Shown: positions 10,466 to 52,764 of the stretch, piece after piece
Numbering within the stretch: the first letter of the stretch is position 1
How the letters are laid out: each line of letters starts with the position of its first letter
From: Candidatus Omnitrophota bacterium
GTDB lineage: Bacteria > Omnitrophota > Gorgyraeia > JABMRG01 > JAFGKX01
NCBI GenBank assembly: GCA_043797125.1
Contig: JAZDPX010000013.1
Span: 9,180-73,179, forward strand
DNA: 64,000 bases
Direction: 5' to 3'
Made by a program: the position numbers and the translations under genes
Notes under the pieces: generated by a model
Databases searched by the model: none
The model's input: the letters and a program-made list of their open reading frames with translations, nothing else
Told to the model about the DNA's origin: nothing

Positions 10466-11484
10466 TTTGCTGTTAATCTTTTTAAGACTCTTCTTATATC
10501 TATTTTTGCCGGGCACGCTGTTATGCAGCGGCCGCATCCTGTGCAGGCATATACATCAGCGGCCTTCGGGAAAAAATCAAACTTTTTTTCAAACCTGTTC
10601 CTTAGCCTCATCCACAGGTGCGGCCTTGGATTAGCGCCTCCTGCAACTCTCGCAAAATACTTTACCATGCAGGAATCCCATATTCGCAAGCGCGCCATTT
10701 TACTTTCATCCTTCTGGTCATATAAAAGAAAACAATGGCAGGTGGGGCATATGGTATTGCACGCGCCGCATTCAACGCATGTCTTTGCCTCGTCCTCCCA
10801 TATACCGGACTCGTAATTTTTATCTATAATGTCTTTAAAAATATCCTGGTTGGGAACATTGTTTTCTTTTATGTTGGCCTCGACTTCCTTGGTTGTTTTT
10901 ACCCTTATGTTGTCCCGTTGAAGTAGAAAACCATTTTTTACTTCTTCAAATAAAGATGCGTGCTTGGAAATAATATTCTCGCCTTTTTTTGATCCTGTTT
11001 CTGCCAGAAAACCGCCATTAACTTGCGAAAGATTTATATCAAAATTCTCCTGCGCATACGGCTTTACGCCTAATGCCAGGCAGAAGCATGTCTTAATCGC
11101 GCAGGTGCAATCGCAGGATATGATAAGATTTTCTTCGCGGGCCTTTATATAAAACGGGTCCTGGTAATCGTGATTTTTAAATACAAAATCCTGGACCTTA
11201 AACCCTTTAAGATCGCATGCCTTAACCCCGACAACAGCAAATGGCTTGTTCTTGCTGGATGGTATATCCGCAGAAAAATCTTCCGCCACAATCTCTCTTG
11301 CCTTGCTGAAAAACGCTTTAACAGGCTCGAATGCCCTTACTTCACCTAGCACGATATCTTCACTCGGGCCTGTGTATTCTGCGTAAAAACGCTGCTGGTT
11401 CTTTTTTACAGGTGTAAAGACGCTGTAATCCTTTTTTAAGAAATCCAGCAGCCTAAATAGATTTTCCCGTGTAATATATTTCAT
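10462..11484 (-). CDS. HydB/AsrA-like iron-sulfur subunit (sulfhydrogenase beta-like)
   Basis: Cys clusters CDCTCAIKTCFC, CVECGACNTICPTCHC and CTGCGRCITACP. Translationally coupled (ATGA) to rex and to the HydG-like gene. Confidence 0.7.
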   Translation of the reverse strand: MKYITRENLFRLLDFLKKDYSVFTPVKKNQQRFYAEYTGPSEDIVLGEVRAFEPVKAFFSKAREIVAEDFSADIPSSKNKPFAVVGVKACDLKGFKVQDFVFKNHDYQDPFYIKAREENLIISCDCTCAIKTCFCLALGVKPYAQENFDINLSQVNGGFLAETGSKKGENIISKHASLFEEVKNGFLLQRDNIRVKTTKEVEANIKENNVPNQDIFKDIIDKNYESGIWEDEAKTCVECGACNTICPTCHCFLLYDQKDESKMARLRIWDSCMVKYFARVAGGANPRPHLWMRLRNRFEKKFDFFPKAADVYACTGCGRCITACPAKIDIRRVLKRLTAK

Positions 11485-12110
11485 TTTTTATTCGCCAGAA
11501 AGTACGAAAGCGTCGCGAGTTCTCTTGAAAGGTCAACGTCTTTCACCTTTACGTTCTCGGGCACTATCAATGCCGCTGGGGCAAAGTTTAATATGCACTC
11601 AACGCCTGAGGCGACTATCTTTTCCGCTACTTCCTGGGCCGCCTGCCCGGGAACAGCTATAATACCTATTGATATCTTTTTTTCCGCCATAACCTTCGGC
11701 ATTTTTTCAATAGGCTGTATAGCCACATCGCCGTGTTTTTTGCCGACTTTTCTCATATCAGAATCGAACGCAGCCACAATATTAAGCCCGCGTTCTTTAA
11801 AGCCCGGATATGCCAAAAGCGCGGTTCCTAAAGAACCAGCGCCTACGACAGCGACGTTCCAGGTCTTATTTTTTCCTAATATATTCTCAAGCGCCTGTTT
11901 TAGCTCATTTACATCGTAGCCGGAGCCGCTTACGCCGAACTGTCCGAAATGGCCCAGGTCTTTTCTTACCTGCGCGTCGCTTAAGTTTAACCTGTCGCCT
12001 AATTCAGCGGATGATATAGTGCGTATGTTTACCTTGGCTAATTCTGTAAGCTCTCTAAGATAAACAAACAGCCTTGAGATTGTGCTTTCGGGGATTTTCT
12101 TGGTATTCAT
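11481..12110 (-). CDS. rex: redox-sensing transcriptional repressor Rex
   Basis: N-terminal wHTH followed by a Rossmann domain (VAVVGAGSLG, AFDSD) with typical Rex length and layout. Confidence 0.85.
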   Translation of the reverse strand: MNTKKIPESTISRLFVYLRELTELAKVNIRTISSAELGDRLNLSDAQVRKDLGHFGQFGVSGSGYDVNELKQALENILGKNKTWNVAVVGAGSLGTALLAYPGFKERGLNIVAAFDSDMRKVGKKHGDVAIQPIEKMPKVMAEKKISIGIIAVPGQAAQEVAEKIVASGVECILNFAPAALIVPENVKVKDVDLSRELATLSYFLANKK

Positions 12111-12149: not shown

Positions 12150-12178
12150 AAGTATATCAAAATAAAAAAATTTTGTCA
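12150..12178 (-). promoter_or_regulatory. sigma-70 promoter of the rex/hydrogenase operon
   Basis: The minus strand reads TTGACA, a 17-nt spacer, then TATACT. Confidence 0.55.
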
Positions 12179-13201
12179 AGTGGATTTTTTAAGGGGGGTT
12201 AATGCTATGCTTGCCAGGTTGACCAGTTCCTTTACCAATGCTATATCCCTGTCTGAAAAGTTGATATTCTTTCTCATGATGTTTAAATTTATAACCCCGT
12301 ACGCGCTTTCGCTGTTGGGCTTGCTAAAAGGCACGATCATGGAGGACGTTATGTCTTTTCTTTTCATCTTCCCGGAAATTGCCTTGTTGTCCTTGTCCTG
12401 AGGCAGAATAATGGGCTTTGATGTAGCTGCGGCAAGGCCTGCTATGCCCTCGCCCATCTTTACATTGGTATTATTAACTATTTCTTTATCGAGTTTCGAG
12501 GAAACTTTTATGTGCAGCATATTAGTAGATTCATTTAAAGTCATTACAGAGCCAGAATCCGCGTTAAGCGCCAGTGTGCATGAATTAAGCAAAGAATTCA
12601 GGATTTTATCTTCGTAATACCTTGAAAACCCGGGGTCAAGCTGCATTACCTCCGGCTTTATTTCGCCGAGGCGCTTTTTATGGTATCCTGCCTGCGCGAT
12701 ATGGGAAAACACCTCTGTCATAAGCTTGATAACTTCGTTTAACCTGTTATAAGTAAAAACAGGCATATCCAGGAGCGTGTCCATCAACTGCTCTAAATCT
12801 ATGCCAAACCTGCTTGCTTCTTTGGAATATGCGGAGGCATCTCCTCTTTTTGCCAACATTACAGGCCCGAGCGCTAAATAGGCGACAATTTCGTCTGCCA
12901 CCGCCATTATGGGGATAATAAAGGCATTAAGCCCGAACGGACAAATAATTTTTGTTTCTTTATCTATGCCCGATATGCTTTTTATTTTAGATTCCGCCAT
13001 GCAGACGTGTAAAACATCGGCATCTTTAGAAGCGTGCGGAAAAATAACCGCGCACAGGTGGTTAGGCCGGCTAGTCTTTGTCATGGCCTCACCGTCAAAT
13101 GAAAAGGTCCTTAAGCTCAGCTCAAGGACCTCTGAAAGAGAATCTTGTATTGCCTGCCAATCTTTAATATTTATAAGCTCTCTAAATAGCAGTTTTGTCA
13201 T
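12176..13201 (-). CDS. GAF-domain sensor protein with no output domain
   Basis: C-terminal GAF motif (MGEGIAGLAAATSKPIILPQD); the N-terminal domain is Cys-containing. The gene overlaps the downstream activator gene by 20 nt. Confidence 0.7.
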   Translation of the reverse strand: MTKLLFRELINIKDWQAIQDSLSEVLELSLRTFSFDGEAMTKTSRPNHLCAVIFPHASKDADVLHVCMAESKIKSISGIDKETKIICPFGLNAFIIPIMAVADEIVAYLALGPVMLAKRGDASAYSKEASRFGIDLEQLMDTLLDMPVFTYNRLNEVIKLMTEVFSHIAQAGYHKKRLGEIKPEVMQLDPGFSRYYEDKILNSLLNSCTLALNADSGSVMTLNESTNMLHIKVSSKLDKEIVNNTNVKMGEGIAGLAAATSKPIILPQDKDNKAISGKMKRKDITSSMIVPFSKPNSESAYGVINLNIMRKNINFSDRDIALVKELVNLASIALTPLKKST

Positions 13202-14609
13202 TTTCTATCTTATCAACAATCGTAATTTTATACTGGCGCAATTTGTTATAGAGAGTTGTCCTGTTCACCCCCAATTTTACAGCCGCCTTTTTCTTGTTCC
13301 ATCCGACTTCCTGTAAAATCTTCAATATATAAACCTTCTCCGGCTCTTTCATGGCGTCCTTAAGCGAAGAAAGTTTCTGGCGCTGCTGGATTGTAATGGC
13401 ATCGCTGACTTCTATTGCGCCGTTAAGTATCACATCGGGTAAATCATCGACATCTATCGCGCTGTCTGTATCAAGTATGACAGCTCTTTCAATAATATTC
13501 TCCAGCTCCCTTATGTTTCCGGGCCAATTGTAACTGGTGAGCGCATCCTGCGCCTGCTGCGAGATGCTATTTATTTTTTTATGGTTTTCTTCTGAATAAA
13601 GATTGACAAAATGCTCTATTAATAGAGGCAAGTCCTGCTTCCTGCTTCTTAAGGGAGGCAGGGTTATTGAAATTACATTAAGCCTGTAATATAAATCTTC
13701 CCGGAATTTTGCGTCTTTAATCGCCTTTTCAAGGTCCTGGTTGGTCGATGCGATAATGCGCACATCTGTTTTTAATGTTTTGTGGTCGCCGACACGCTCA
13801 TATTCCTTTTGCTGCAAAATCCTTAACAACTTGACCTGCAAATCCAGCGAGAAAGAATCTATATCATCTAAAAGCATCGTGCCGCCGTCTCCAAGCTCGA
13901 ATCTGCCTTTGCGGTCAGCTATGGCGCCTGTAAAAGCTCCCCTGGTATGCCCAAACAGCTCGCTCTCAATTATTTCTCTTGGCAGGGCGCCGCATGATAC
14001 TTCAATAAAAGGCTTATTGTGCCTTTTTTTATCGGCCTTATGTATTGCCTGCGCCAGCATTCTTTTTCCTGTGCCGCTTTCGCCGCGCAAAAGTATTGTT
14101 GCCTTTGTATTGGATATGCGGTTAATCAGGGAGTATATCTCTTTCATCTGGGGGCTGTTTCCCACAAGATTAAAGCATGCTCCTGCGTTCTTTGGGGGGT
14201 CTTTCGGGAATATTTGCTCTTTTACCGAGAGGGGAATATTGGCGAATGCCCTTTTTATAGCGCTTACAATCTTTTTATCTTCGACAGGCCTTACAAGATA
14301 ATCAAACGCGCCTATCTTTATGCTGTCAACCGCGGATTCTATGTTGCCGTACGAAGTAAGTATTATAATCTGGCAGGGGTAGTTTTGCTTCTTGATTATT
14401 TTAAGCAGCTCATTGCCGCTGCCGTTTACATCTGTTAATACTACGCGGCGGGGATTATTATCAAGGTGTTTTAAGGTTTCTTCTATTGAATCTGCGAGGT
14501 CAACTGCGTAGCCGTAGCGGCAAAGCATCTCGTAAATGGATTTCCTGGTGAGCTTATCATTGTTCACTACCAATACGTTTGGTTTGCCTGCCGGCTGTTG
14601 ATACTTCAC
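13182..14609 (-). CDS. sigma-54-dependent transcriptional activator (NtrC family) with atypical receiver
   Basis: AAA+ core (GESGTGK, ESELFGHTRGAFTGA) and a C-terminal Fis-type HTH. The receiver has NN in place of the acidic DD pair. Start codon is GTG. Confidence 0.85.
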   Translation of the reverse strand: MKYQQPAGKPNVLVVNNDKLTRKSIYEMLCRYGYAVDLADSIEETLKHLDNNPRRVVLTDVNGSGNELLKIIKKQNYPCQIIILTSYGNIESAVDSIKIGAFDYLVRPVEDKKIVSAIKRAFANIPLSVKEQIFPKDPPKNAGACFNLVGNSPQMKEIYSLINRISNTKATILLRGESGTGKRMLAQAIHKADKKRHNKPFIEVSCGALPREIIESELFGHTRGAFTGAIADRKGRFELGDGGTMLLDDIDSFSLDLQVKLLRILQQKEYERVGDHKTLKTDVRIIASTNQDLEKAIKDAKFREDLYYRLNVISITLPPLRSRKQDLPLLIEHFVNLYSEENHKKINSISQQAQDALTSYNWPGNIRELENIIERAVILDTDSAIDVDDLPDVILNGAIEVSDAITIQQRQKLSSLKDAMKEPEKVYILKILQEVGWNKKKAAVKLGVNRTTLYNKLRQYKITIVDKIENDKTAI

Positions 14610-14919
14610 TGATTTCTCTTTCTATTTTTACTGCGTAATTATTAAGCCTTTTCACTAGGGATGACGTCTTTCTTATGCCTTTTTTGGACTCAAGAAGGAA
14701 TTCTCTTCCCTGCGAATCTTCATCTATTGTTTGTAATGTCAAATTTATAAAACGATTTACCGTATCAATAGGGCTGCAAAGCTGATTTATTATATTCCTA
14801 GATACTTTACCCATTCGCATGAGCTTTTTGTATCGCTTGGATTTTCGGCCTGAGCTTTGCTGGCCATTTTGGCTGATTACGCCATTTTTAGGTAAGGTAG
14901 ATTGTACCATATTGTCCAT
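14557..14919 (-). CDS. hypothetical basic protein
   Basis: ORF only, with no clear RBS. It would fill a 380-nt gap that otherwise has no gene. Confidence 0.3.
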   Translation of the reverse strand: MDNMVQSTLPKNGVISQNGQQSSGRKSKRYKKLMRMGKVSRNIINQLCSPIDTVNRFINLTLQTIDEDSQGREFLLESKKGIRKTSSLVKRLNNYAVKIEREISEVSTAGRQTKRIGSEQ

Positions 14920-14966
14920 GACAGTGCAAGTAAAAAATACAATTTTTAAAAAGTATTAATAATGCC

Positions 14967-14991
14967 GTCATCCCCGCGAAAGCGGGGATCC
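14967..14991. repeat. repeat A: GTCATCCCCGCGAAAGCGGGGATCC (GC stem, GAAA loop)
   Basis: Exact copy that abuts the stop of the TPR gene. Confidence 0.85.
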
Positions 14992-14992
14992 A

Positions 14993-15865
14993 TTATGCAG
15001 GCAGTTCCTTCTTCAGCGCCTCTATCCTCTTTTCCAGAATAGCCTTAAATCTATTATCTACTGCCTTTTCTTTCATATCGCTATATATCTGTATCGCCTG
15101 CTGCGGCATTTTAAGTGTCTTCACATATATAAACTCCACGGCGGGAAGCTGTTGCTCAAAAGTAGACGGCGAAGGATAATTATTAATTATATCCTGCACC
15201 ATTTTGCCGGCATCCTCAAACTTTGTCAGGCCTACGTATGACTGCACAAGCAAGGTTGCTGCCATATATCCGAGCGCTGTTGCCTTGTTATCTTTTTCTG
15301 TTTTGCTGTAAAATGCCGCAGCTTCTGCATATGACTGCTCTGCGCGCACAGCATCACCTGCTTTTGAATAGTGATTTGCAATATAAAGCGCTGCCTGAAG
15401 TCCTAAAAATGTATTCGCGTATCTATCTTTTAGCGTGGTATATTCCTCTAACGCCTTGCTCCATTTGTCCTGCTTTTCATAGACGGTTGCCTTAAGAAAA
15501 TGCGCCTTGCTTAAAGTGGCAAGATCCCCGCCGGGCTTGCTGATGACAGTATCGATGCCGGTTATGGCTTTATCGTATTTATTTGTGGCTATGTAAAACT
15601 CTATCAGCACCATTTGCGCTGTCTTGGCAACATCTGTCTGCGAAAAGTTCTTTATTACCTTGTTTAAGTCGTTTTCAACCGAGGTAAACAGCTTTGGGGG
15701 TATTACATCCGGGTTTTGTGTTATCTTTTGGATATTTTTGGTTGCGCGGTAAAACAGCTTCTCCGCCTTGTACTCAGGGCTCTGCCCGTATATAGTGAGA
15801 AGTATATATACTATTATTAATATAAGCCCCAGGGAAAATATAATGCCTCTGATATTTAGCTTCAC
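14993..15865 (-). CDS. TPR-repeat protein with N-terminal TM anchor
   Basis: TPR-like helical repeats. A GTG start at 15865 with a GGAGG SD is preferred over track start 15907. Confidence 0.65.
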   Translation of the reverse strand: MKLNIRGIIFSLGLILIIVYILLTIYGQSPEYKAEKLFYRATKNIQKITQNPDVIPPKLFTSVENDLNKVIKNFSQTDVAKTAQMVLIEFYIATNKYDKAITGIDTVISKPGGDLATLSKAHFLKATVYEKQDKWSKALEEYTTLKDRYANTFLGLQAALYIANHYSKAGDAVRAEQSYAEAAAFYSKTEKDNKATALGYMAATLLVQSYVGLTKFEDAGKMVQDIINNYPSPSTFEQQLPAVEFIYVKTLKMPQQAIQIYSDMKEKAVDNRFKAILEKRIEALKKELPA

Positions 15866-15866
15866 T

Positions 15867-16715
15867 TTATTCCTCCGTATCCAGTAAAAACTGCGACGCG
15901 CACACAATTACAAAGCTGTCTATAAATATTGTAAGGACTATTCCTAATAATGTTATGGCAACGGTTATTTCAGGGAATGTCATCTGGGCCAGCTGTGTCG
16001 CGTTGCTTTTTAATAAAGCTATGGGTAAAAACAATAGCGACGGGACTAATATTAAAGCGAATAAACTGAAAAACCTGCGAAAGCCCAGGGAAATGCTTTT
16101 GCCCAATGCTTTTACCAGCGGGCTTTTTTGCATTACCATAATAGGCAGCGCAAGTATAAAAAATGTCTGCAATATGATGTTAGATGCAAATAAAAATAAT
16201 GACGCTCCTGAAAAATACGCCCTGCCTACAAAGCGCGGCGCTTGCTTCGCGGCGAGCCTTGCCAGTTTATTAAAAATAAACAAATCTGCCTTTTTTAATA
16301 AAAACAAAAGGATAATCATCAGAATACCAAAAGATAAAAACGCGCCGCATCTTTTTAAGGCGTTTTTTATAAAGGCGTTGGTCCTTAGCGGAAGGCCCTC
16401 TTTGACGTTCCTGAATATATTAATGGAAACGCCGGTTAAAAATACGGCTATAAAGATGTAAATCAGTATTTGAAGGTAATAAAATATATTAGGCAATATA
16501 ATGACATTGCCGGGATAGTGCAGGGAGGCTTCGCCGTAAAATTTTCTTATAACGGGCCCGGCTATTATTGATAGGGGCTTCCTTGATGAAAAATAAATTA
16601 GTTCAACTGCCAGGCACTCAAAAAAGGCAGTAATAATAAAAGGCAAAAGAATGATAGGCTTTGCCTTCAGCAAATCAAATGCCGATACCCAATTTTTCCT
16701 TAAGTTATAGTTCAT
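15867..16715 (-). CDS. polytopic membrane protein, function unknown
   Basis: 282 aa with at least six hydrophobic segments. Confidence 0.55.
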   Translation of the reverse strand: MNYNLRKNWVSAFDLLKAKPIILLPFIITAFFECLAVELIYFSSRKPLSIIAGPVIRKFYGEASLHYPGNVIILPNIFYYLQILIYIFIAVFLTGVSINIFRNVKEGLPLRTNAFIKNALKRCGAFLSFGILMIILLFLLKKADLFIFNKLARLAAKQAPRFVGRAYFSGASLFLFASNIILQTFFILALPIMVMQKSPLVKALGKSISLGFRRFFSLFALILVPSLLFLPIALLKSNATQLAQMTFPEITVAITLLGIVLTIFIDSFVIVCASQFLLDTEE

Positions 16716-16770
16716 ATTTTATATTATATCACAACTCTGAACTTTTTCTACTTTTTTTAGAAAGTGCTTA

Positions 16771-16849
16771 AAAAAAATGCCATCACTACGGCCTTTTATT
16801 ACAGTGGGAGAACACAAAACTTTTCTTGCAAGAGCCTTGTGCTCTCCCC
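16771..16849 (-). terminator. hairpin (GGGAGAGCACAA/TTGTGTTCTCCC) followed by T8 tract downstream of PEP-CTERM gene
   Basis: A 12-bp stem with one mismatch sits at 16806-16849, and a T8 run on the minus strand at 16771-16778. Confidence 0.4.
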
Positions 16850-16907
16850 CATAAGCATGCTTACTAGGTTCAAGCAAAAGCTCCCACCTTAATTAAAAGA
16901 TAAGGAG

Positions 16908-17480
16908 CTATTTGCTGAACTTATTTCTTACTGCTCCAACACCAATTCCTAAAAGGCCGAGGCCTAATAGAGCCATTGTTGCCGGTTCCGGTACTCCGGG
17001 CGCTTTTGACGTGCCTGTTGCATCTTCGTCGGTTTGATTCCACGCTGCTGCAGTTGTAAAATAAGGCATGTGAACGCTTTTTACTCTGAACTCACCTTGC
17101 GATTCACCTATATCCAGCTGATACCCATAATCTGCATCCCAACCAAAAGTCATAGGATATGGATTCCAATCCCATCCGGTCGGCGTATTTACTTCTATCA
17201 CGCTAACAACCGACGGTTTATCCAGCGCGAAATCTGTAAGATATGTGTCGTAACTAATATTCGTAAGCATATACTCATATCCCCAGTAACCTGTCCCGTA
17301 AACGAAATTGCCGGCTGAATTATCAGAAGGATCCCATATGCCTAAATCCAGCTGTGCATTTCCGTCCACGCAGGTTAGTATCGACGTAAACGTTGAAGTA
17401 AACGCCCATGCGCCTGAAGTAACGCTTAACATCATTGCTGCGAACATCATTATTGTTAATATTCTTTTCACTTGTTTCAC
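16908..17480 (-). CDS. PEP-CTERM sorting-domain secreted protein
   Basis: Signal peptide, and the C-terminus is VPEPATMALLGLGLLGIGVGAVRNKFSK (PEP motif, TM helix, basic tail). Confidence 0.85.
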   Translation of the reverse strand: MKQVKRILTIMMFAAMMLSVTSGAWAFTSTFTSILTCVDGNAQLDLGIWDPSDNSAGNFVYGTGYWGYEYMLTNISYDTYLTDFALDKPSVVSVIEVNTPTGWDWNPYPMTFGWDADYGYQLDIGESQGEFRVKSVHMPYFTTAAAWNQTDEDATGTSKAPGVPEPATMALLGLGLLGIGVGAVRNKFSK

Positions 17481-17600
17481 CTCCTTTTTTTAAAAAATAT
17501 TTATCACAGATGACCGCAGATTAAAGGATACAGATGATCACAGATATAATATCTGCGATCATCTTGCATTTTTTTATCTGTGCTAATCTGTGTCAATTTG

Positions 17601-18248
17601 TTATCTTTTCCTTCTGAATAAAAGCCCTGCCGCGCCTAATCCAACTAACGCCAATGTAATAGGCTCGGGATTTGCTTGCGCGTCATGCGACGGCGGAACA
17701 AATTTATTATTAGGATTGCCACTGTTTGAAAAATAATACCCGTATGCGTCTATATGTAAGCTGTTAAGGCCTGAAGATGTTACATTGAATTCTAAGATGG
17801 TTCCGTCGGCTGTGCCGCTGCCGGGCATATCCTGCACCGTTTCTGATCCCAAAGGAATATAGCCAAGCGAATGTTCCGCATAATAAGCCGGATATATCCC
17901 GTGAGGCGGCAGTGAGGATGTAAACGGCTCGCCATCTATGGTGTAAGTTTTGAAAGGCGTACCATGCGCAAACGTAGAATATGTATAATAATCATTCGTG
18001 CCATCAGGATTAACGGTTATTGAACCTGCATTGTCGTCACCGGTCGCAAATGTCAAATATACGCCGTATAAATCCTTGTTAGCCGCGATAAACCAAAGCT
18101 CAAAATTGGTTGACCCAAAATGCCAGCTCTGGTCAGCGTCTACATATGTGCCGCCGGGTATATATACCTGCATATCAGGAACAGCATACGCGTTCGCGGC
18201 GAATAACAACCCCAGCACCATTAGCGCCAATAATAATTTCGTTTTCAT
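17601..18248 (-). CDS. PEP-CTERM sorting-domain secreted protein
   Basis: Signal peptide MKTKLLLALMVLGLLFAANAYA, and the C-terminus is NPEPITLALVGLGAAGLLFRRKR. Confidence 0.85.
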   Translation of the reverse strand: MKTKLLLALMVLGLLFAANAYAVPDMQVYIPGGTYVDADQSWHFGSTNFELWFIAANKDLYGVYLTFATGDDNAGSITVNPDGTNDYYTYSTFAHGTPFKTYTIDGEPFTSSLPPHGIYPAYYAEHSLGYIPLGSETVQDMPGSGTADGTILEFNVTSSGLNSLHIDAYGYYFSNSGNPNNKFVPPSHDAQANPEPITLALVGLGAAGLLFRRKR

Positions 18249-18976
18249 ATTCTCCTCTTTCTGCGCAAAGCGCCGAAACCTAAAGCTCCCAAGCCAAGCA
18301 AAATAACCGACGCCGGCTCGGGCGTTACAGTATAAGAACCGCTCATATAATCATTTGCGCATGTGGCAGCTGCCCAATAAACATTCATGGGCCCGAGCTC
18401 TTCCATAAATAAATTATACGGCACTGAAACATCTCTACGGTTAAAATCATAGCCATTGCTTAGTGTGCCTACCTTAGTAAAGGTAACAGTTCCGTCATAA
18501 AGTTCGCTATCATAATTTGCCGCTGTTACATTATTGTTAAACATACTGCCCGAATACCCGTAATATGATTTCCATTGATACGACGTGTTCCACTGGGTAG
18601 TGCCGGAGTAAAGATTGCCTTCACTAAATTGCGGATTACCCGAAGCTGTTGGTGTGCCATGATCAGTCATGGCTATGGCAAAATCTTTCGTACCTGTATT
18701 TCCCGGCACGGTAATTTTTATATCACCACAGAAAAGTTGCCCAATTCCGCTTTCCGGAAAACCGCTGTATAATTGAAACGTAAGCATTGAGCCATTTTGT
18801 GCGATATCTATTCCATATCCTTCATAACGTGGATCGCCAAGGCGCTCATATGTGCTGCTTGTGCTATAGCTCCAATAATCCTCGATGGTAAATTCAGCAG
18901 GCGGCGTAACTACGCAAAACGCAGTTTTGGCAGCCAGCAAAATCATCATACAAACCAGTACAATTATCATCTTCAT
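18245..18976 (-). CDS. PEP-CTERM sorting-domain secreted protein
   Basis: C-terminus TPEPASVILLGLGALGFGALRRKRRI. The signal peptide begins at the internal MKMIIVLV (ATG 18976); the 16-aa N-terminal extension in the track is a translated heptamer repeat. Confidence 0.8.
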   Translation of the reverse strand: MKMIIVLVCMMILLAAKTAFCVVTPPAEFTIEDYWSYSTSSTYERLGDPRYEGYGIDIAQNGSMLTFQLYSGFPESGIGQLFCGDIKITVPGNTGTKDFAIAMTDHGTPTASGNPQFSEGNLYSGTTQWNTSYQWKSYYGYSGSMFNNNVTAANYDSELYDGTVTFTKVGTLSNGYDFNRRDVSVPYNLFMEELGPMNVYWAAATCANDYMSGSYTVTPEPASVILLGLGALGFGALRRKRRI

Positions 18977-19024
18977 ATTCTTTTTCCCCTGCCCACAGCT
19001 CAAGGCCCACAGCCCACAGCTCAA

Positions 19025-19798
19025 TTATCTTGCTCCTCTTCCCGCCGCTACAACAAAAACTGTCCTGAACAATATCCTCACATCCGTCATCAGGCACATT
19101 CTTTTTATATATAAAAGGTCATACTTTATTTTCTTCCTTACGTCCTGTATGGTCTCATCGTATTTGTGCCATACTTGCGCAAGACCGGTTATGCCCGGCT
19201 TTACCGCGTATCTTTTTCTGTAATCAGAAATTTCCTTGCTAAGCGTTTTTACAAAAACAGGGCGTTCGGGCCTTGGGCCTACAATACTCATCTCGCCGCT
19301 TAAAACATTAAAAAGCTGCGGTATCTCATCGATATGCGCTTTTCTTATTATCTTGCCGAATTTAATAAGGCGGGGGTCATTCTCTCTTGCCCAGATGGGG
19401 CCTGTTTCTTTTTCAGCGTCAAGTTTCATCGTGCGGAATTTGTATATATCAAAAAGCTTGCCACTTCTGCCCATTCTCTCTTGTTTATAAAAAACCGGAC
19501 CCGGCGAAACAATTTTAATCAGCATTGCCGTTAAAAGCATAATAGGCGCTGTAACAACTAAGCCTACAGATGCTACTGTTACATCAAAGCATCTTTTAAA
19601 TTCCTCGAAGCGCTTTCTGGCAAACCTGATCACCCAGCCAATAATGCCTGTTGATATCAAAGCAAGACTGCTTGGTTCAGGAGCTATTACGCGTCCGGTG
19701 CCGTTTTGGGCATAAACAAGCTCTATCATGTAGAACGCGAATAGGCCTAAAAATAAAAACAGAATTGCTAAATTAAGGTGGGCTTTAATTCTTTTCAT
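19025..19798 (-). CDS. polyprenyl-phosphate sugar phosphotransferase (bacterial sugar transferase, EpsB/WbaP C-domain type) with PEP-CTERM-like N-terminal anchor
   Basis: Catalytic-domain motifs (SPGPVFYKQERMGRSGKLFDIYKFRTM, IVGPRPERP). The N-terminal 63 aa are a signal-like helix followed by APEPSSLALISTGIIGWVIRFARKR. Confidence 0.8.
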   Translation of the reverse strand: MKRIKAHLNLAILFLFLGLFAFYMIELVYAQNGTGRVIAPEPSSLALISTGIIGWVIRFARKRFEEFKRCFDVTVASVGLVVTAPIMLLTAMLIKIVSPGPVFYKQERMGRSGKLFDIYKFRTMKLDAEKETGPIWARENDPRLIKFGKIIRKAHIDEIPQLFNVLSGEMSIVGPRPERPVFVKTLSKEISDYRKRYAVKPGITGLAQVWHKYDETIQDVRKKIKYDLLYIKRMCLMTDVRILFRTVFVVAAGRGAR

Positions 19799-19943
19799 AA
19801 ACTGCGCGTAATGATTTCTGACTTAGATCTCTTTGCTTTCGCGAATAACGCCTTGCTAAAAGATATATGCCGAATCCGTCTTTCACGTCCTCCAAAACTT
19901 CTTTTATTTTTTCTATCATTTCTTTCATTTTATTTCTCTATTT

Positions 19944-19968
19944 GTCATCCCCGCGAAAGCGGGGATCC
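19944..19968. repeat. repeat A
   Basis: Exact copy inside the sigma-54 leader. Confidence 0.85.
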
Positions 19969-19996
19969 AAATTATATTACATTACACTTACTATAT

Positions 19997-20013
19997 AAGC
20001 ATATTCCGTGCCA
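19997..20013 (-). promoter_or_regulatory. sigma-54 (-24/-12) promoter upstream of sugar-transferase/PEP-CTERM operon
   Basis: The minus strand reads TGGCACGGAATATGCTT, with GG and GC at the canonical 12-nt spacing. Confidence 0.6.
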
Positions 20014-20207
20014 GAATGCCTTTTTTGGCATAAAAAATCACATGTACAAAGTTTTCTATCTTATTGCAAATAAAGGAGTTACAACCTAAGATTTTCTGAT
20101 AATATCCAACAAACTATGACAATATAGGACTGTCATTGATAGGTGATTGGATTAGATTAGACACTATTTGGAGTGGGTGTTCACTTGCGTGGACATGAGA
20201 ATATTTT

Positions 20208-20232
20208 GTCATTCCCGCGCAAGCGGGAATCC
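20208..20232. repeat. repeat A variant (GTCATTCCCGCGCAAGCGGGAATCC)
   Basis: Immediately upstream of the abiEi -35 element. Confidence 0.85.
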
Positions 20233-20307: not shown

Positions 20308-20949
20308 ATGAACTATAACGAATTCAAAAAAGAAACACAAAATCAGCCGCTTGTTTTAAGCAGCGATCTTTTAGCTCTTAAAGAAAGCAAACAGGCCATC
20401 CGCAACCAGCTCGAACGCTGGCGCAAGAAAAAGCTGCTTATCAGGCTTAAGCGCGGCGTATTCCTGCTTAATCAAAGCGATAGGAAACTAAACATTTCCA
20501 GGGCTTATATTGCCAATCAGTTATATAGTCCGTCATACGTAAGCGTGGAATATGCCCTTAATTATTACGGCTTGATTCCTGAGCGAACAAATGATTTAAC
20601 CAGTGTCAGCGCCAAAAAAACTTTGCGTATTGTAAACGAAACGGGAAACTTCATCTACCAGCATATTAAGCCGCAGGCTTTCAGGGGATTTAAAGCGCAA
20701 AAAGACGACGCCGGGCTTGCCTTTTTTATTGCTGTGCCTGAAAAGGCAATTGTTGATTTTATTTATTTAAACCTTAACAAGTTTAAGGTTCAGGATAAAA
20801 GTATCTTTGAAGAATCCTATCGTTTTCAAAATTTAGAGGTTTTAAAAACGAAAATCATTATGGAATTCGCCAAGGGTTTTAATAGTGATAAATTATTGCG
20901 CGTGTGTAAACTTTTTTGTGAATTCGCGAAGAAAGAAGGTGCAAAATGA
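20308..20949 (+). CDS. AbiEi-family antitoxin/transcriptional regulator (type IV TA)
   Basis: N-terminal wHTH region and AbiEi-like layout. The gene is paired with the downstream nucleotidyltransferase by a 4-nt overlap. Confidence 0.6.
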   Translation: MNYNEFKKETQNQPLVLSSDLLALKESKQAIRNQLERWRKKKLLIRLKRGVFLLNQSDRKLNISRAYIANQLYSPSYVSVEYALNYYGLIPERTNDLTSVSAKKTLRIVNETGNFIYQHIKPQAFRGFKAQKDDAGLAFFIAVPEKAIVDFIYLNLNKFKVQDKSIFEESYRFQNLEVLKTKIIMEFAKGFNSDKLLRVCKLFCEFAKKEGAK

Positions 20950-21755
20950 TAGAAGTTCTTAAGCAATATATTGCCGCGGAAGCGTCGAGTGAAAAAAAGG
21001 CTAACCTACTAAGAGAGCTGCTTCAGCTTTTATTCCTGAAAATATTGCATGATAAGGGGTATTTTGCAAAAATTGCTTTTGTCGGCGGTACAGCGCTTAG
21101 AGTATTGTATGATACGAGGCGCTTTTCAGAAGATTTGGATTTTTCACTTATTGATAAAAAGGGCTATAGCTTCTTAGCGATGATTTCCGCGTTAGAGCGC
21201 GAATTGGGCTTAAATGGTTTGAAAATAAGCGCGAAAACAAAAATCGCAAAAACTGTCCAGTCCGGTATGCTTAAATTTCCCGGGCTTTTACAGCAACTGG
21301 GCTTATCTGCTGTTAAAGAACAGAATCTGTCCATTAAAATTGAGCTTGATTCCAACCCGCCTTCCGGATGGCAGCTTGAAAATACGCTTATTAATAAAAC
21401 GTATGTATGCAATATCACGCATTTTGCTCTGCCGTCTCTATACGCCACTAAGCTTCATGCTTGTTTTTTTAGAAAGTACATCAAGGGACGGGACTTTTAT
21501 GACCTGATTTGGTATCTGGGTAAAAAAATCAAGCCTAATTATAAATTGCTTAATAACGCCATAAAACAAACGCACGGGGAATCCCCTGAATTAGGCGAAA
21601 ACAATATAAAAGATTTTCTTCTTAAGAAATTAGAAAAGATTGATTTTTGCGCGGTTAAAAAAGATGTGGAAAGGTTCCTTGAGGATGAAAACGAACTAAA
21701 GCTTCTGGAATTATCGATTATCTCAAAAAGCGTCAGGGATGTTTTCTCGTTATAA
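20946..21755 (+). CDS. AbiEii/AbiGii-family nucleotidyltransferase toxin (DUF1814)
   Basis: Conserved AbiEii motifs FVGGTALRVLY...RFSEDLDFSL. Confidence 0.7.
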   Translation: MIEVLKQYIAAEASSEKKANLLRELLQLLFLKILHDKGYFAKIAFVGGTALRVLYDTRRFSEDLDFSLIDKKGYSFLAMISALERELGLNGLKISAKTKIAKTVQSGMLKFPGLLQQLGLSAVKEQNLSIKIELDSNPPSGWQLENTLINKTYVCNITHFALPSLYATKLHACFFRKYIKGRDFYDLIWYLGKKIKPNYKLLNNAIKQTHGESPELGENNIKDFLLKKLEKIDFCAVKKDVERFLEDENELKLLELSIISKSVRDVFSL

Positions 21756-21785: not shown

Positions 21786-21812
21786 CGCCATAAATGGCGC
21801 CCCTACTTCATA

Positions 21813-21850: not shown

Positions 21851-21924
21851 GTCATCCCCGCGCAAGCGGGGATCCATTCTTGTCATCCCCGCACCCTCTG
21901 TCATGCCCGCGAAAGCGGGAATCC
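21851..21924. repeat. repeat A tandem cluster (two full copies and one half copy)
   Basis: Copies at 21851-21875, 21882-21892 and 21900-21924. They contain the EpsI stop codon. Confidence 0.85.
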
Positions 21925-22542
21925 ATACTCCAGTTCTTCCACCACTCTCTTCATAAAATCCTTCAGCTCCACCAGCGTCGCTTCTTCGTTACTGCCCAGC
22001 GGCGCTGAAATCCTCACCGTCGCTCCACCGGCACGCCTGCCGAGCAGCTGATTAATCGCAAACAACGCCTGCTGCAGATAATAATTCTCCGTATAAAAAT
22101 TCCCAACCTTATAACAATAAAGCACTAACTCTTTTCCTGTATCATCCCCAATGTAAAGTTTATTGGTAAGGAATTTATATTTATCAAAACTCATCTCTTC
22201 GCTTTTTTTATCCAGTATCTTTAAGCCACTTCCTATCATGCACACTTCTGGCGGGTGAAACACCGAGCGGTTTGTCTCCGAATATATTATAAAGGCCCAT
22301 ATCTTTTCATTGGAAGGATTAATATATTCACGGAAGATTAAATTTCTCGTCTCTAAAATCTCGTAATCTCTTTCTTCTATCTTTATATCTTTCCCTTCCC
22401 ACTCGCCTAGTTTATATGGAAAGGTATGTATATCGAGTATGTCATGTGAGCTCTTCTGCTTGAAAAATAGATTAATAGAGAAAAAGCTGGCGACTACTAG
22501 CATGGTAATTATAATAATATAGCCGATTTTAGTTTTATTCAT
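21901..22542 (-). CDS. EpsI-family exosortase-associated protein
   Basis: Signal or anchor peptide (MNKTKIGYIIIITMLVVASFF) followed by a periplasmic domain, directly downstream of exosortase. ATG at 22542. The last 7 aa and the stop codon lie inside a repeat-A copy. Confidence 0.6.
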   Translation of the reverse strand: MNKTKIGYIIIITMLVVASFFSINLFFKQKSSHDILDIHTFPYKLGEWEGKDIKIEERDYEILETRNLIFREYINPSNEKIWAFIIYSETNRSVFHPPEVCMIGSGLKILDKKSEEMSFDKYKFLTNKLYIGDDTGKELVLYCYKVGNFYTENYYLQQALFAINQLLGRRAGGATVRISAPLGSNEEATLVELKDFMKRVVEELEYGFPLSRA

Positions 22543-23374
22543 GTTTATTCTCAAGCCCCTTCCCCACCCAAAACAACAACCCAAACGCCACCACGAATAC
22601 CATAAATCCCGCAAACCCATGAAAAAACCCGTTCGCCGCTTTTTCTCCATATAAATCATTTACTATGGAAACTGATGTTATTCGCAGGACATTAGAAAAT
22701 ATAGCTATTGGCACCGACGATAAAAGCAGCGTTGTCTTTTTAATATACGACGCCTTCATTGTAAAAGCAAAAACCAGGCCCAGCGTAAGCAAAGAAATCA
22801 AAGACCGCAAGCCACTGCAGGGATCTGCCACGAGAATAAAAGAATTTGGCATTCTTATGTAGCCGCCGTCTTTAATGGCCTGGAATCCAATCCTGTTAAG
22901 CAAAAACACCGAGCCATCCATAGCCAAAAGCTTAAGCCGCACAACCAAGTTTCCAATTAATACAAGTGGAAGCGGTATCATCGCCAATAAGAAAAATACA
23001 GGAAATATAAGGCATTTCGCTATTTCCTTTCCAAAGAAAAACAAAACCAACCCATACAGCGCGAATACAAATGAAAATCCCGATATAAAATAGACCTTAA
23101 GCGCCGCGCAGATAATATGTATCAACAAACTTGCGGCAATAATTATTACTCCCGACATCGAGCTTGACATTTTTGCTTTCTTAAGCAGCTCTTTCCTGCT
23201 CCACACAAAATACAGCGCCACTACCGGTATAAGCATCCCATGCCCGTAGTAGGACTCTTTGGCAAACCATCTGTCAATCATCCAATCCAGCATTGGAATA
23301 TAGGCGATTAGCAGCAATATCGCGCTTGAGGCAAATTGAATTATACGTTTAGTATTATCTTTCATTTTTGTCAC
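22535..23374 (-). CDS. exosortase (EpsH/XrtA family)
   Basis: Eight-TM protein with the catalytic motif LVADPCSGLRSL and conserved Arg (NVLRITS) and His (FHGFAG). Confidence 0.85.
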   Translation of the reverse strand: MTKMKDNTKRIIQFASSAILLLIAYIPMLDWMIDRWFAKESYYGHGMLIPVVALYFVWSRKELLKKAKMSSSMSGVIIIAASLLIHIICAALKVYFISGFSFVFALYGLVLFFFGKEIAKCLIFPVFFLLAMIPLPLVLIGNLVVRLKLLAMDGSVFLLNRIGFQAIKDGGYIRMPNSFILVADPCSGLRSLISLLTLGLVFAFTMKASYIKKTTLLLSSVPIAIFSNVLRITSVSIVNDLYGEKAANGFFHGFAGFMVFVVAFGLLFWVGKGLENKHE

Positions 23375-23868
23375 TCTGCCAATATTTCTTCTATTTTAAG
23401 TACAAAATCTTTCGCGTCTTCTATAATCCATTCAGCATCATCATTTGTAAGGATTTCGACGCCATACTGTTCTATAACCCTTTCCCCTTGCGCTTTATCA
23501 AGCGTTTCCGCGTATTTCTTCTCAAGCTGCTTTGCCTTTTTTATATAGTTGATATACTCTACTGCTACCTTTCCCCGCTCAACGTAGAATTTCTTAAAAG
23601 CAGCTATGGCGCAATAATGAGCTGTGGCACGAATGCCTATCTTATATAAAGCAGCTAAAACCGAATGATACATCGCATAATATCCGCAGATAACAGCCCA
23701 GTCAAATAAACCATTATCGAACATTATTTTCATAGCGCGCAAATTTTTATGCGCTTTATCGATATGCTGCCCTGCCCTTTCTGTGCTTACAGGCACCCTA
23801 TGAAGATTTGGCTTTCCCTCCCTGGGCTTAAAACATCCGCGTAAAGTCTTTTCTGTATCTTTAGGCAT
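23371..23868 (-). CDS. HEPN-domain protein (toxin of HEPN/MNT pair)
   Basis: Helical protein of 165 aa, overlapped 8 nt by the upstream nucleotidyltransferase gene. Confidence 0.55.
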   Translation of the reverse strand: MPKDTEKTLRGCFKPREGKPNLHRVPVSTERAGQHIDKAHKNLRAMKIMFDNGLFDWAVICGYYAMYHSVLAALYKIGIRATAHYCAIAAFKKFYVERGKVAVEYINYIKKAKQLEKKYAETLDKAQGERVIEQYGVEILTNDDAEWIIEDAKDFVLKIEEILAE

Positions 23869-24496
23869 ATGCCTTGCCTCCCTCTTTAATCAGTTGCCAA
23901 AATAAGAATTCATTATACAAAACAATCCTATCTTTCCACAAATCGGCGTAAAATTCGGTTTTTTTGCGGAAGCCCTCTGTAAATTTTTCAGTCGTAGTGC
24001 TTATCGGCCTTATTTCTAATAACGGGCCTACATCTGTTTTCGCCTCGTTCAACGCCGCTGTTATATCCTTCTCTTTGCCGGATACAACCGCCAGAATATC
24101 TATGTCGCTATCCTTAGACCACTCACCCCTTGCCACAGAACCAAAAAGAATTACCAGCTGGATTTTTTTGTTTGATAGTTTTATTATATCCTGAGCGTAT
24201 TTTTGCAATAACCGCGCTATTTTTTTATTGGAATCATAGAATTTCTTCTTTTTTTCTAGCTCTAAGTATTCAAATATCTTCAGAAGAGCCTCATTTTCAA
24301 GGTTAGGTTTAAAAAATACCATATTTGATACTTCCCGCCTTTGGAACATATCGTCTTTTACAAATAAACGCAAGGAGTTGTCTACGTTATTTAACGAGAC
24401 TTTCGATAGGCGGGCAATTTCCCTAAGATGTATCTCTTTAAACGGATTTTTTAGAAAAACCTCCAACACTTTCTTTCTCATGATTGGTATCAACAT
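23861..24496 (-). CDS. minimal nucleotidyltransferase (MNT) with N-terminal HTH (antitoxin of HEPN/MNT pair)
   Basis: GSVARGEWSKDSDIDIL nucleotidyltransferase motif together with an N-terminal HTH. Confidence 0.7.
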   Translation of the reverse strand: MLIPIMRKKVLEVFLKNPFKEIHLREIARLSKVSLNNVDNSLRLFVKDDMFQRREVSNMVFFKPNLENEALLKIFEYLELEKKKKFYDSNKKIARLLQKYAQDIIKLSNKKIQLVILFGSVARGEWSKDSDIDILAVVSGKEKDITAALNEAKTDVGPLLEIRPISTTTEKFTEGFRKKTEFYADLWKDRIVLYNEFLFWQLIKEGGKAYA

Positions 24497-24733: not shown

Positions 24734-24777
24734 GTCATCCCCGCGCCTCACTGTCATGCCCGCGCAGGCGGGCATCC
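24734..24777. repeat. repeat A half copy plus variant copy
   Basis: They encode the C-terminus and stop of the GT4 gene. Confidence 0.8.
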
Positions 24778-25955: not shown

Positions 25956-26050
25956 GTCATCCCAACGCAAGCCAGCGGCCTTGCTGCTTCAAAGTAGCGG
26001 AGCCTTAAGGCTCCGCTACTTTGTTGTCATTCCCGCGCAAGCGGGAATCC
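25956..26050. repeat. composite: degenerate repeat A, repeat B, repeat A
   Basis: 25956-25980, 25994-26019 and 26026-26050. Confidence 0.8.
25994..26019. repeat. repeat B palindrome
   Basis: Exact copy, flanked by repeat-A copies. Confidence 0.9.
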
Positions 26051-47958: not shown

Positions 47959-47983
47959 GGATCCCCGCTTTCGCGGGGATGAC
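47959..47983. repeat. repeat A (reverse orientation)
   Basis: GGATCCCCGCTTTCGCGGGGATGAC, upstream of the epimerase start. Confidence 0.85.
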
Positions 47984-52501: not shown

Positions 52502-52581
52502 TTTCCATTCCTCCTGTATTATTATGGGTTATTATGGTTGCTGTCTATGAAATACCATGACAGGTATGCACTTACATATAT

Positions 52582-52598
52582 AAGCATTATCCGTGCCA
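52582..52598 (-). promoter_or_regulatory. sigma-54 (-24/-12) promoter upstream of the Wza/Wzz/kinase export operon
   Basis: The minus strand reads TGGCACGGATAATGCTT. It shares the core TATATAAGCAT-T-ATCCGTGCCA with the copy at 19997. Confidence 0.6.
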
Positions 52599-52662
52599 AA
52601 CTTAAGTTTTTGCGAAAAAATTATATAGTGATGTAACTTGTTGTAGATAAAAGAGTTGTAAG

Positions 52663-52698
52663 CACACGTAGCGGAGGCTTAAGCCTCCGCTACGTGTG
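52663..52698. repeat. repeat B variant, 36-bp perfect palindrome (centre GGCTTAAGCC)
   Basis: CACACGTAGCGGAGGCTTAAGCCTCCGCTACGTGTG. Confidence 0.9.
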
Positions 52699-52764
52699 CT
52701 CTTGCGTTTCCTATGTTGAATTATATAGACACGTGTATCTAAAACTGCTAAAATATATCCCCTT

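Follow-up and report, generated by a model that had tools for sequence, protein, structure and literature searches.

Two predicted sigma-54 promoters heading the PEP-CTERM and export operons of an Omnitrophota exopolysaccharide locus

The stretch of DNA analysed here (the window, 64 kb) derives from a Candidatus Omnitrophota genome and carries on its minus strand, from 52.5 kb to 21.9 kb, a block of exopolysaccharide (EPS) and exosortase genes. Two short elements on the same strand, site 1 (TGGCACGGAATATGCTT, 19997–20013) and site 2 (TGGCACGGATAATGCTT, 52582–52598), are probably functional sigma-54 (RpoN)-dependent promoters that start the two main transcription units of the locus. Site 1 would drive a priming sugar transferase together with PEP-CTERM proteins, whilst site 2 would drive genes for a fusion of a winged helix-turn-helix (wHTH) domain to a Wza-like exporter, for a Wzz-like protein, an ATPase and a tyrosine kinase, and probably also the glycosyltransferase and exosortase genes located behind these. 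An earlier note on this DNA had placed the two 17-mers on the minus strand at these positions and both were found exactly there.

Both cores match the sigma-54 consensus. In site 1 a GG is present at −24/−25 and a GC at −12/−13, and the spacing is canonical in both sites, in agreement with the exact −24/−12 spacing claimed previously. The −12 C is at position 19999 in site 1 and 52584 in site 2, giving predicted transcription starts at approximately 19987–19988 and 52572–52573, respectively. Both cores fit TGGCACG-N4-(A)TGCT with a single deviation, an A instead of a T at −15, and TGGCACG-N5-TGCT has exactly two exact matches in the window. When all of the approximately 128,000 positions were scored with a sigma-54 weight matrix (an approximate one, based on the Barrios 1999 consensus, with a maximum of 22.1 bits), the two sites gave the two best scores, at 18.5 and 17.8 bits with site 1 at the top, and the third-ranked match (16.2 bits, 55246–55262) was located within a Pyr_redox_2 (pyridine-nucleotide oxidoreductase) gene. 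The two sites share a longer block, TGGCACGG-[AAT/ATA]-ATGCTTATATA, in which 20 of 22 positions are identical and which is followed by (T)GTAAGTG. The consensus proposed earlier for this block, T-ATCCGTGCCA, describes site 2 but does not describe site 1, which reads ATTCCGTGCCA. Pairwise alignment revealed a further downstream extension, ATATAGTAAGTG, round the predicted start (19985–19996, minus strand, at site 1), which is common to site 2, is kept in site 1 orthologues and was equalled in 8 of 1000 shuffles. A/T tracts adjoin the core at both sites.

The genes that follow are close to each core. From the −12 C of site 1 there are 71 nt to a 47-aa open reading frame (ORF; start at 19928) and 201 nt to the ATG of the sugar transferase (19798), and the export operon has its first ATG (52501) 83 nt beyond the −12 C of site 2. 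The coordinates and the description in the earlier note were essentially right, its distances of 190 and 70 nt being corrected here to 201 and 83 nt. The same note had given a kinase-ATPase order for the export operon, the actual order being wza-like, wzz-like, ATPase and tyrosine kinase. It also placed rpoN next to site 2, and this gene is indeed adjacent and divergent.

To relate these sites to those of other genomes, upstream regions of related loci (designated by L-numbers) were compared, the site 2 set having been gathered via homologues of the first gene after site 2. In close orthologues a core of the form TGGCAC(A/G)(G/A)ATATTGCTTATA was present in all eight (with TGGAAC in two), 67–280 nt before the start codon, and the intergenic sequence round this core has diverged. 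Among 78 homologous HTH-wza loci for which 150 nt or more of upstream DNA were available, 66 have a forward sigma-54 site scoring 12 bits or more within 400 nt upstream, whereas scanning the reverse strand of the same DNA as a control gave such a site in 4 of 78. For site 1, a sigma-54 core preceded the orthologous sugar transferase in four of four loci, with scores of 15.2–19.8 bits as against 9 or less on the reverse strand. These four loci (L209–L212) retain the order exosortase, EpsI, transferase, PEP-CTERM proteins, unknown protein, TPR protein, small protein, sigma-54 enhancer-binding protein (EBP) and PocR/GAF protein. An alignment of the five site 1 sequences contained four conserved islands, the core among them, with the other columns diverged. 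No site 1 orthologues other than L209–L212 were found when all of the collected loci were searched. Since position and orientation are conserved in relatives, both sites are assigned as real sigma-54 promoters, site 1 of the PEP-CTERM operon and site 2 of the export operon, and the placement of such promoters upstream of these two operons in the earlier note is borne out on the same grounds.

A reading of both sites as matches due to chance, or as copies of some mobile or duplicated element that has no promoter function, is scarcely credible. It gains something from the A/T-richness of the window and from two dispersed repeat families found near both sites. Against this, the mean number of matches to the core pattern in dinucleotide-preserving shuffles was just 0.06, with two matches reached in 1 of 100, and the orthologous positions are kept in dozens of diverged genomes in which the flanks and the repeat elements are not. 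Likeness between the two regions is moreover restricted to short collinear modules, which counts against a mobile or duplicated copy.

The earlier note had taken the near-identity of the two sites as a sign of one dedicated EBP regulon, a claim that fails. The sigma-54 core is read by sigma-54 and not by the activator, and core identity therefore says nothing about which activator is used; as a point of method, it is no evidence for a shared one. When a collection of species-representative genomes was scanned with TGGCACGGNNNNTGCTTATATA, the extended block TGGCACGG-N4-TGCTTATATA was found in at least 119 places across many phyla, compared with roughly 17 expected under a uniform model (our own estimate). 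The matches listed include Treponema, Enterococcus, Clostridium and Bacteriovorax (spirochaetes, Firmicutes and Bdellovibrio-like bacteria), Latescibacterota and others, and among them a T precedes TGG in 82%, a T is present at −15 in 69%, and a weak TAAGTG follows TATATA. Such flanks are typical of real sigma-54 promoters and the extended block is, as judged from these matches, generic. When the two promoters were compared within each of three related genomes, site 1 and site 2 had 16–21 of 30 nt in common, whereas cross-genome promoter pairs average 18.7 of 30 and same-site orthologues approximately 22. Pairs from the same genome are no more alike than those from different genomes and there is therefore no concerted evolution. 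The resemblance of the cores is best read as selection toward a lineage optimum, TGGCAC(R)GATATTGCTTATATA-GTAAGTG, to which both promoters of the window are close, and not as duplication or activator specificity. A shared regulator of both units is nonetheless plausible on other grounds, namely an operator motif and an upstream module that occur at both sites, so that the argument for co-regulation rests on the common operator and not on the cores.

The upstream module is represented by AACTCCTTTATTTGCAATAAGATA at site 1 (20057–20080, minus strand, approximately −70 to −93; conserved in L209, L210 and L212) and by its counterpart AACTCTTTTATCTACAACAAGTTA at site 2 (52634–52657, minus strand, approximately −62 to −85). 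The two are collinear and together give AACTC(C/T)TTTAT(T/C)T(G/A)CAA(T/C)AAG at approximately −62 to −93, an alignment equalled by 9 of 1000 shuffles, and AACTCYTTTATYTRCAAYAAG precedes both cores. As the module is A/T-rich, it could possibly be a DNA-bending or architectural site. Further upstream of site 1, the strongest conserved upstream block, ATGACAGTCCTATATTGTCATAGTTTGTTGGATAT (20102–20136, minus strand, approximately −115 to −149), resembles an upstream activator sequence. It consists of the palindrome ATGACnGTCAT plus TGTCATRG units spaced 10 bp apart and is present in five of five site 1 sequences, with the consensus TCAATGACTGTCATRGT.TGTCATAG. There are four occurrences of TGTCATRG in the entire window, one at each promoter among them. 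A distal block, AACACCCAC...AATAGTGTCTAATCTAATCCAA (20147–20181, minus strand), is conserved in L210, L211 and L212 as CAACACACCC-N-AATGTCTAA, and GTGTCTAAT aligns weakly with site 2 (27 of 500 shuffles equal).

At site 2 the corresponding motif is found in the leader, where the imperfect palindrome CTGTCATGGTATTTCATAGACAG with a GACA core (52541–52563, minus strand, approximately +10 to +32) is a putative operator. GTCATRG is present at a fixed offset from the site 2 core in 10 of 13 close relatives, with the intervening 19 nt variable. Leaders of distant relatives carry, in place of GTCATRG, three to five direct RGACAT repeats of the form (T/C)nRGACATAc. The RGACAT repeats number 102 in the forward orientation and 9 in the reverse, and the distance from one unit to the next is exactly 10 nt in 64 of 78 cases. 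Leader 7-mers are enriched 20–58 fold over upstream DNA. In another clade a perfect palindrome, CTATGACTGTCATAG, lies immediately 3' of the −12 element. Of the activator sites to be expected upstream of both cores, a conserved candidate was present at site 1 (−115 to −149) and no clear copy at site 2, where the motif is at +10 to +32 instead. A GTGTCTA upstream of site 2 was considered as a shared enhancer and is ambiguous, because it coincides with the −35 hexamer (TAGACA) of a sigma-70-like promoter of rpoN.

This promoter, TAGACA-17-TAAAAT (52726–52754, plus strand), was detected by promoter scan and precedes the rpoN gene (52765–54051, plus strand), the product of which scores 351.6 bits against TIGR02395 (cut-off 277.35). 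Of the 53 loci with enough flank (L120–L201), 24 have a divergent rpoN upstream of the HTH-wza operon at a distance of no more than 4 kb. These include distant loci in which RpoN identity is 27–29%, and rpoN is therefore conservedly linked to the target operon. In one relative (L121) a second, divergent sigma-54 site (TGGCACGATTTATGCTT, 9830–9846, minus strand, 17.9 bits) is directed toward a gene of 244 aa, behind which rpoN is located, and this suggests sigma-54 autoregulation of rpoN in that relative.

The candidate activator is a response-regulator EBP comprising REC, AAA+ and HTH_8 domains (13182–14609, minus strand; Sigma54_activat 1e-66), in which Walker A and GAFTGA (RGAFTGA) motifs are present. 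It is syntenic with the site 1 block, being conserved 3' of the PEP-CTERM block in L210, L211 and L212, and the motif upstream of site 1 is as far from the core as an enhancer would be. The EBP gene is part of an operon with a gene for a small protein (14557–14919; 120 aa, conserved, NRFINL...FLLESK) and one for a PocR+GAF protein (12176–13201), preceded by a sigma-70-like promoter, TTGCAC-17-TACAAT (14901–14929, minus strand), of which both hexamers and the spacing are kept in L211 and L212. A candidate third operator, TGTCATGG at 14916, was rejected, being located in the spacer of this conserved promoter and not kept in L211 or L212. In the window the PocR/GAF gene is followed by a Rex gene (11481–12110). 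In L210 a strong sigma-54 site (TGGCACACATTTTGCTT, 12639–12655, plus strand, 18.2 bits) is found 3' of the PocR/GAF gene and before an unknown gene of 207 aa; the window lacks a counterpart to this site and has Rex there instead.

A second candidate regulator, identified from Pfam matches, is encoded by the gene that comes first behind site 2 (51491–52501, minus strand). It is composed of a MerR/BldC-like wHTH (residues approximately 9–57), a transmembrane (TM) segment (approximately 78–100) and Poly_export and SLBB domains. The Pfam models MerR, MerR_1, HTH_17, Poly_export and SLBB_2 all exceed their cut-offs, with MerR and MerR_1 covering residues 10–57. Merely 20 or so residues separate the wHTH from the TM segment, leaving no room for a MerR coiled coil. 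Matches of the wHTH to the PDB were 3qao (1.8e-6) and chains of 6amk/6ama (approximately 2e-3), which we take to be BldC, with a MerR-like N-domain among the structures; the score against the NF033787 HTH_BldC model was 23.6 bits, under the cut-off of 77. The wHTH-TM-exporter architecture is present in most of the best 120 homologues, and homologues with a named source are from Omnitrophota/Omnitrophica, with one filed under Candidatus Uhrbacteria. No other part of the protein is as conserved as the wHTH, in which residues 8–47 are nearly invariant in 26 homologues. Recognition-helix residues shift with motif type (TPKTI[IV]RWEK, TPRTIMRWEK, TTKTITRWEK and SPKTLARWEK). In L152 the wHTH is free-standing and is encoded by an ORF of approximately 70 aa (4709–4996), which is preceded by the same promoter and array and overlaps the start of wza (4968–6452). 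The wHTH-Wza protein is an unusual transcription factor–exporter fusion and an unexpected candidate regulator with phased operators.

The reading favoured here is that RNA polymerase containing sigma-54 would be held in a closed complex at each core and that this complex would be opened by the local response-regulator EBP, itself expressed from a sigma-70-type promoter. The EBP would act via the TGTCATRG/GACA arrays, positioned at −115 to −149 at site 1 and, atypically, at +10 to +32 at site 2, and the A/T-rich AACTCYTTTATYTRCAAYAAG module between might assist DNA bending. Positions 3' of the promoter have precedent, as FleQ of P. aeruginosa has an enhancer 3' of a sigma-54 promoter. A downstream enhancer is likewise described for the sigma-54 activator RocR of B. 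subtilis (Belitsky and Sonenshein 1999, as cited in PMC3162934). Several points weigh against this scheme. The matrix behind the core scores is approximate, and the conservation of site 1 is based on four orthologues only. At site 2 no clear copy of TGTCATRG/GACA was found upstream, the space being filled by a palindrome resembling repetitive extragenic palindromic (REP) elements and by the rpoN promoter. The EBP receiver is atypical, with NND in the place of the acidic pocket and RP in the place of the KP lysine, and no histidine kinase was found nearby among the window ORFs scanned. These features and the adjacent PocR/GAF protein hint that the EBP is controlled in some other way than by a phosphorylating kinase; the receiver may be phosphorylation-independent and the EBP controlled by the PocR+GAF protein or by the small protein 14557–14919. 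Finally, direct repeats with a period of 10 bp, such as those in the leaders of distant relatives, are unusual for dimeric Fis-type HTH_8 activators and fit the BldC-like wHTH encoded by the operon itself better. The EBP is put forward as the putative reader of the TGTCATRG arrays.

There is a substantial possibility, somewhat short of an even chance, that the BldC-like wHTH and not the EBP reads the shared TGTCATRG/GACA arrays, in which case the sigma-54 promoters themselves would stay real. With the wHTH anchored in the membrane through its exporter fusion, head-to-tail or paired binding at +10 to +32 of its own promoter would then amount to autoregulation, most simply as a roadblock, and binding upstream of the PEP-CTERM operon would couple both units to the export machinery. 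This is favoured by the near-invariance of the wHTH across homologues, its above-cut-off MerR-family matches, the 6amk/6ama match and the lack of coiled-coil space before the TM segment. The exact 10-nt period of the leader repeats and the fixed offset of the arrays from the core are also in its favour, as is the free-standing wHTH of about 70 aa in L152 behind the same promoter and array. BldC binds a variable number of direct repeats as head-to-tail multimers on one helix face (PMC5859096). The change of motif type along with recognition-helix residues points the same way but is confounded by phylogeny, because the clades differ throughout. The site 1 motif at −115 to −149 is in the classic position of an EBP enhancer, and the BldC consensus repeat, AATTNNNNC, is unlike RGACAT; both argue against the wHTH as reader. 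A more extended version, in which the wHTH, as a hitherto undescribed regulator that is usually TM-fused to the Wza-like exporter and free-standing in some lineages, couples the exosortase/EPS machinery of Omnitrophota to sigma-54 transcription, is tentative and rather doubtful. It would have the wHTH polymerise on 10-bp phased RGACAT/TGTCATRG arrays, at +10 of its own promoter and at enhancer distance at the PEP-CTERM operon. If true, both sigma-54 units and the adjacent rpoN would respond to the state of the envelope export apparatus.

A further alternative, that the site 2 leader element acts as RNA, either as a hairpin or as repeats bound by a protein such as CsrA, with control at the level of stability or translation, is unlikely. 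The element is transcribed, the repeats are strongly biased to the forward strand, and the window copy can form a bulged hairpin of 8 bp. CsrA sites have a GGA core, which GGACA resembles. This hairpin is, however, no stabler than those of shuffled sequences (z = +0.2), many of the repeat units are AGACA and thus lack GGA, and an Rfam scan of the window matched no family. Presence of the motif in untranscribed DNA upstream of site 1, and as palindromes in either orientation, is also difficult to reconcile with an RNA element, whilst the strict 10-nt period and the fixed distance from the core suit a DNA helix. Sigma-54 promoters activated by the EBP remain the preferred reading.

Two families of dispersed repeats occur in the vicinity of the sites. 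A perfect 40-bp palindrome at 52661–52700 belongs to REP-like family A, which has the pattern GTAGCG(G/C)AG(C/G)CTTAAG(G/C)CT(C/G)CGCTAC and eleven further copies in intergenic regions of the window; this palindrome was considered as a site 2 enhancer and rejected because it is one of 12 dispersed copies. Family A elements are perfect, loop-less palindromes (GTAGCGGAGCCTTAAGGCTCCGCTAC, 26–40 bp) in intergenic gaps, including gaps inside the export operon, with starts at 21812, 25990, 28246, 49106, 50063, 51453, 52661, 54047, 57859, 60588 and 61140. Variants with compensatory changes occur in relatives, such as GTAGGGCAGGTTTAAACCTGCCCTAC in L120 and one resembling it in L134. Family B consists of a REP-like hairpin, GTCATYCCCGCGNAAGCGGGRAT, with eight copies in the window and none in shuffles, located at 14967–14989, 19944–19966, 20208–20230, 21851–21873, 21900–21922, 24753–24775, 26026–26048 and 47961–47983. 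The copy in the site 1 leader (19944–19966, plus strand) has a predicted stability of −18.6 kcal/mol (z = −3.7) with no U tract after it, and is an insertion, as orthologous site 1 leaders have no copy. The hairpins at 19944–19966 and 20208–20230 were accordingly rejected as promoter-specific elements, belonging to a REP-like family of eight copies and being absent from the orthologues.

The gene block behind site 1 (14993–19798, minus strand), identified by NCBIfam matches and with synteny kept in L209–L212, begins with the polyprenyl glycosylphosphotransferase gene (19025–19798, minus strand), the product of which scores 297 bits against TIGR03025 (cut-off 295.55). A PEP-CTERM-like motif, APEPSSLALISTGIIGWVIRFARKR, was observed N-terminal to the Bac_transf domain of this transferase, and PF07589 is recorded in several homologues. 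Three PEP-CTERM proteins with TIGR02595 scores above the cut-off follow on the minus strand (18245–19024; 17601–18248, choice-of-anchor N; and 16908–17480), and then a 282-aa protein of no assigned family and the TPR protein (14993–15907). The 3' end of the site 1 transcript is uncertain because a terminator scan identified a terminator-like site at 16779–16792. The first ORF after site 1 is the conserved 47-aa ORF (19785–19928, minus strand), which overlaps the sugar-transferase start. It is a called gene in L212 and an in-frame fusion with the transferase in L209 and L210, and may reflect either a frameshift or an arrangement of two genes. About 5 nt separate the predicted transcription start from the beginning of the small ORF in L209 and L211.

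The remainder of the EPS/exosortase block, 3' of site 2 (21901–51423, minus strand; family models), starts with the chain-length determinant (wzz-like), an ATPase of the XrtA-associated type and a tyrosine autokinase, followed by sugar-nucleotide enzymes (epimerase), an amidotransferase, an ABC exporter, many glycosyltransferases and a GH123 hydrolase. The exosortase (22535–23374, minus strand) scores 168.1 bits against TIGR02602 (cut-off 105.55) and EpsI (21901–22659, minus strand) 79.5 bits against TIGR02914 (cut-off 42.8), so that exosortase, EpsI and PEP-CTERM substrates, the latter with TIGR02595 matches exceeding the cut-off of 16, are present together in one locus. The exosortase scores 177.9 bits against the XrtA model, under the cut-off of 208, and for the export, chain-length, ATPase, kinase, amidotransferase and stp1/stp2 proteins XrtA-type models were the best matches, every one of them below cut-off. 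Because these best-match XrtA/PEP-CTERM models of the accessory proteins score below the curated cut-offs, the system is not XrtA itself, and by these scores it is related to the XrtA type, yet distinct. Inserted between the exosortase block and site 1 is an AbiEi/AbiEii pair (20308–21755, plus strand), and AbiE pairs also adjoin the homologous promoter in L123, L124 and L126. A pair encoding HEPN and nucleotidyltransferase proteins is located inside the exosortase cluster (23371–24496, minus strand), and both of these inserted pairs are of the toxin-antitoxin or defence type.

Omnitrophota are an uncultivated phylum, often ultra-small or host-associated. To our knowledge, sigma-54 control of PEP-CTERM and exopolysaccharide genes is documented only in Proteobacteria, via PrsK/PrsR, and no paper tying Omnitrophota to sigma-54 regulation of EPS or PEP-CTERM genes was found in the literature searched. 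For a lineage without genetics, the locus described here would offer testable cis elements, along with two candidate trans factors, through which surface polymers may be regulated. More generally, control of EPS and of the cell exterior has been attributed to sigma-54 (PMC3162934).

The closest known arrangement is that of Proteobacteria, in which a sigma-54 motif and an upstream activator box precede PEP-CTERM genes (Haft et al. 2006; PMC1569441). The box, designated Motif 1, is a 17-nt sequence ending TTTACA approximately 63 nt upstream of the sigma-54 motif; it was found only in Proteobacteria, with regulation elsewhere left open (PMC1569441). The label 'PrsR type' attached previously to the proposed regulon would make the locus a member of this PrsK/PrsR/PrsT 'PEP-CTERM box' regulon, which is highly improbable. 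The two share a logic, in that a sigma-54 promoter precedes PEP-CTERM genes and an NtrC-type EBP and a TPR protein are encoded, and TIGR02915 is among the EBP matches (5.6e-105). However, the score of the EBP against this PrsR model is 351.7 bits, well below the cut-off of 502.6, and the AtoC, NtrC, ZraR and NifA models rank higher, the EBP also falling below the cut-offs of the AtoC and NtrC models. Neither PrsK (TIGR02916), which usually occurs in tandem with PrsR, nor any other histidine kinase was found in the approximately 60 window ORFs scanned. The TPR protein 14993–15907 did not match PrsT (TIGR02917), YbgF, BamD and LapB being weakly matched, and TTTACA was not found in the 110 nt before either core, a crude test made from the description of the motif. 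The label is thus wrong, the box having in addition been found only in Proteobacteria (PMC1569441), and on these comparisons the locus does not belong to the proteobacterial PEP-CTERM box system but is analogous to it.

As in the PrsK-PrsR-PrsT system, PEP-CTERM genes are preceded by a −24/−12 promoter, upstream of which a conserved element is found at the distance typical of enhancers, and an NtrC-type EBP and a TPR protein are encoded near EPS/exosortase genes. Unlike that system, the locus belongs to Omnitrophota and its EBP gene is flanked by those for the PocR+GAF protein and a small conserved protein, not by prsK. The Omnitrophota motif is TGTCATRG/ATGACnGTCAT and not a 17-mer ending TTTACA, and the Omnitrophota promoters head multi-gene operons, with the priming transferase and the export genes, whereas the proteobacterial box mostly precedes single PEP-CTERM genes. 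The pepA gene of Aquincola tertiaricarbonis has a mapped RpoN1-dependent promoter, TGGCAC-N5-CTGCTT, and its expression is lost in an rpoN mutant (PMC9850573). The core is of the same type as those of the Omnitrophota sites; the Aquincola system is experimental, proteobacterial and PrsK/PrsR-associated, whereas the Omnitrophota sites are predicted from sequence and conservation.

The remaining comparisons concern the putative readers of the arrays. Like the downstream enhancers of RocR and FleQ, the candidate activator site at site 2 is 3' of the start, with the same motif upstream at site 1. Like BldC, the wHTH is a short MerR-type domain with no coiled coil, the putative targets of which are direct repeats. 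It differs from BldC in usually being TM-fused to a Wza-like periplasmic exporter, in the repeat, a 10-bp RGACAT unit and not the BldC consensus, and in the location of the arrays directly 3' of a sigma-54 promoter, with binding by the wHTH being predicted only. ToxR and CadC are membrane-tethered one-component regulators, and the fusion protein resembles them in that the same polypeptide has a DNA-binding domain in the cytoplasm, crosses the membrane with one TM segment and ends in a periplasmic domain; its DNA-binding domain is, however, MerR/BldC-like and not OmpR-like, and its periplasmic part is Poly_export/SLBB and not a sensor. Taken together, these comparisons are consistent with the same regulatory logic being present in Omnitrophota as in the proteobacterial system, assembled from non-orthologous parts, namely another EBP, no kinase partner, another enhancer motif and an rpoN gene linked to the target.

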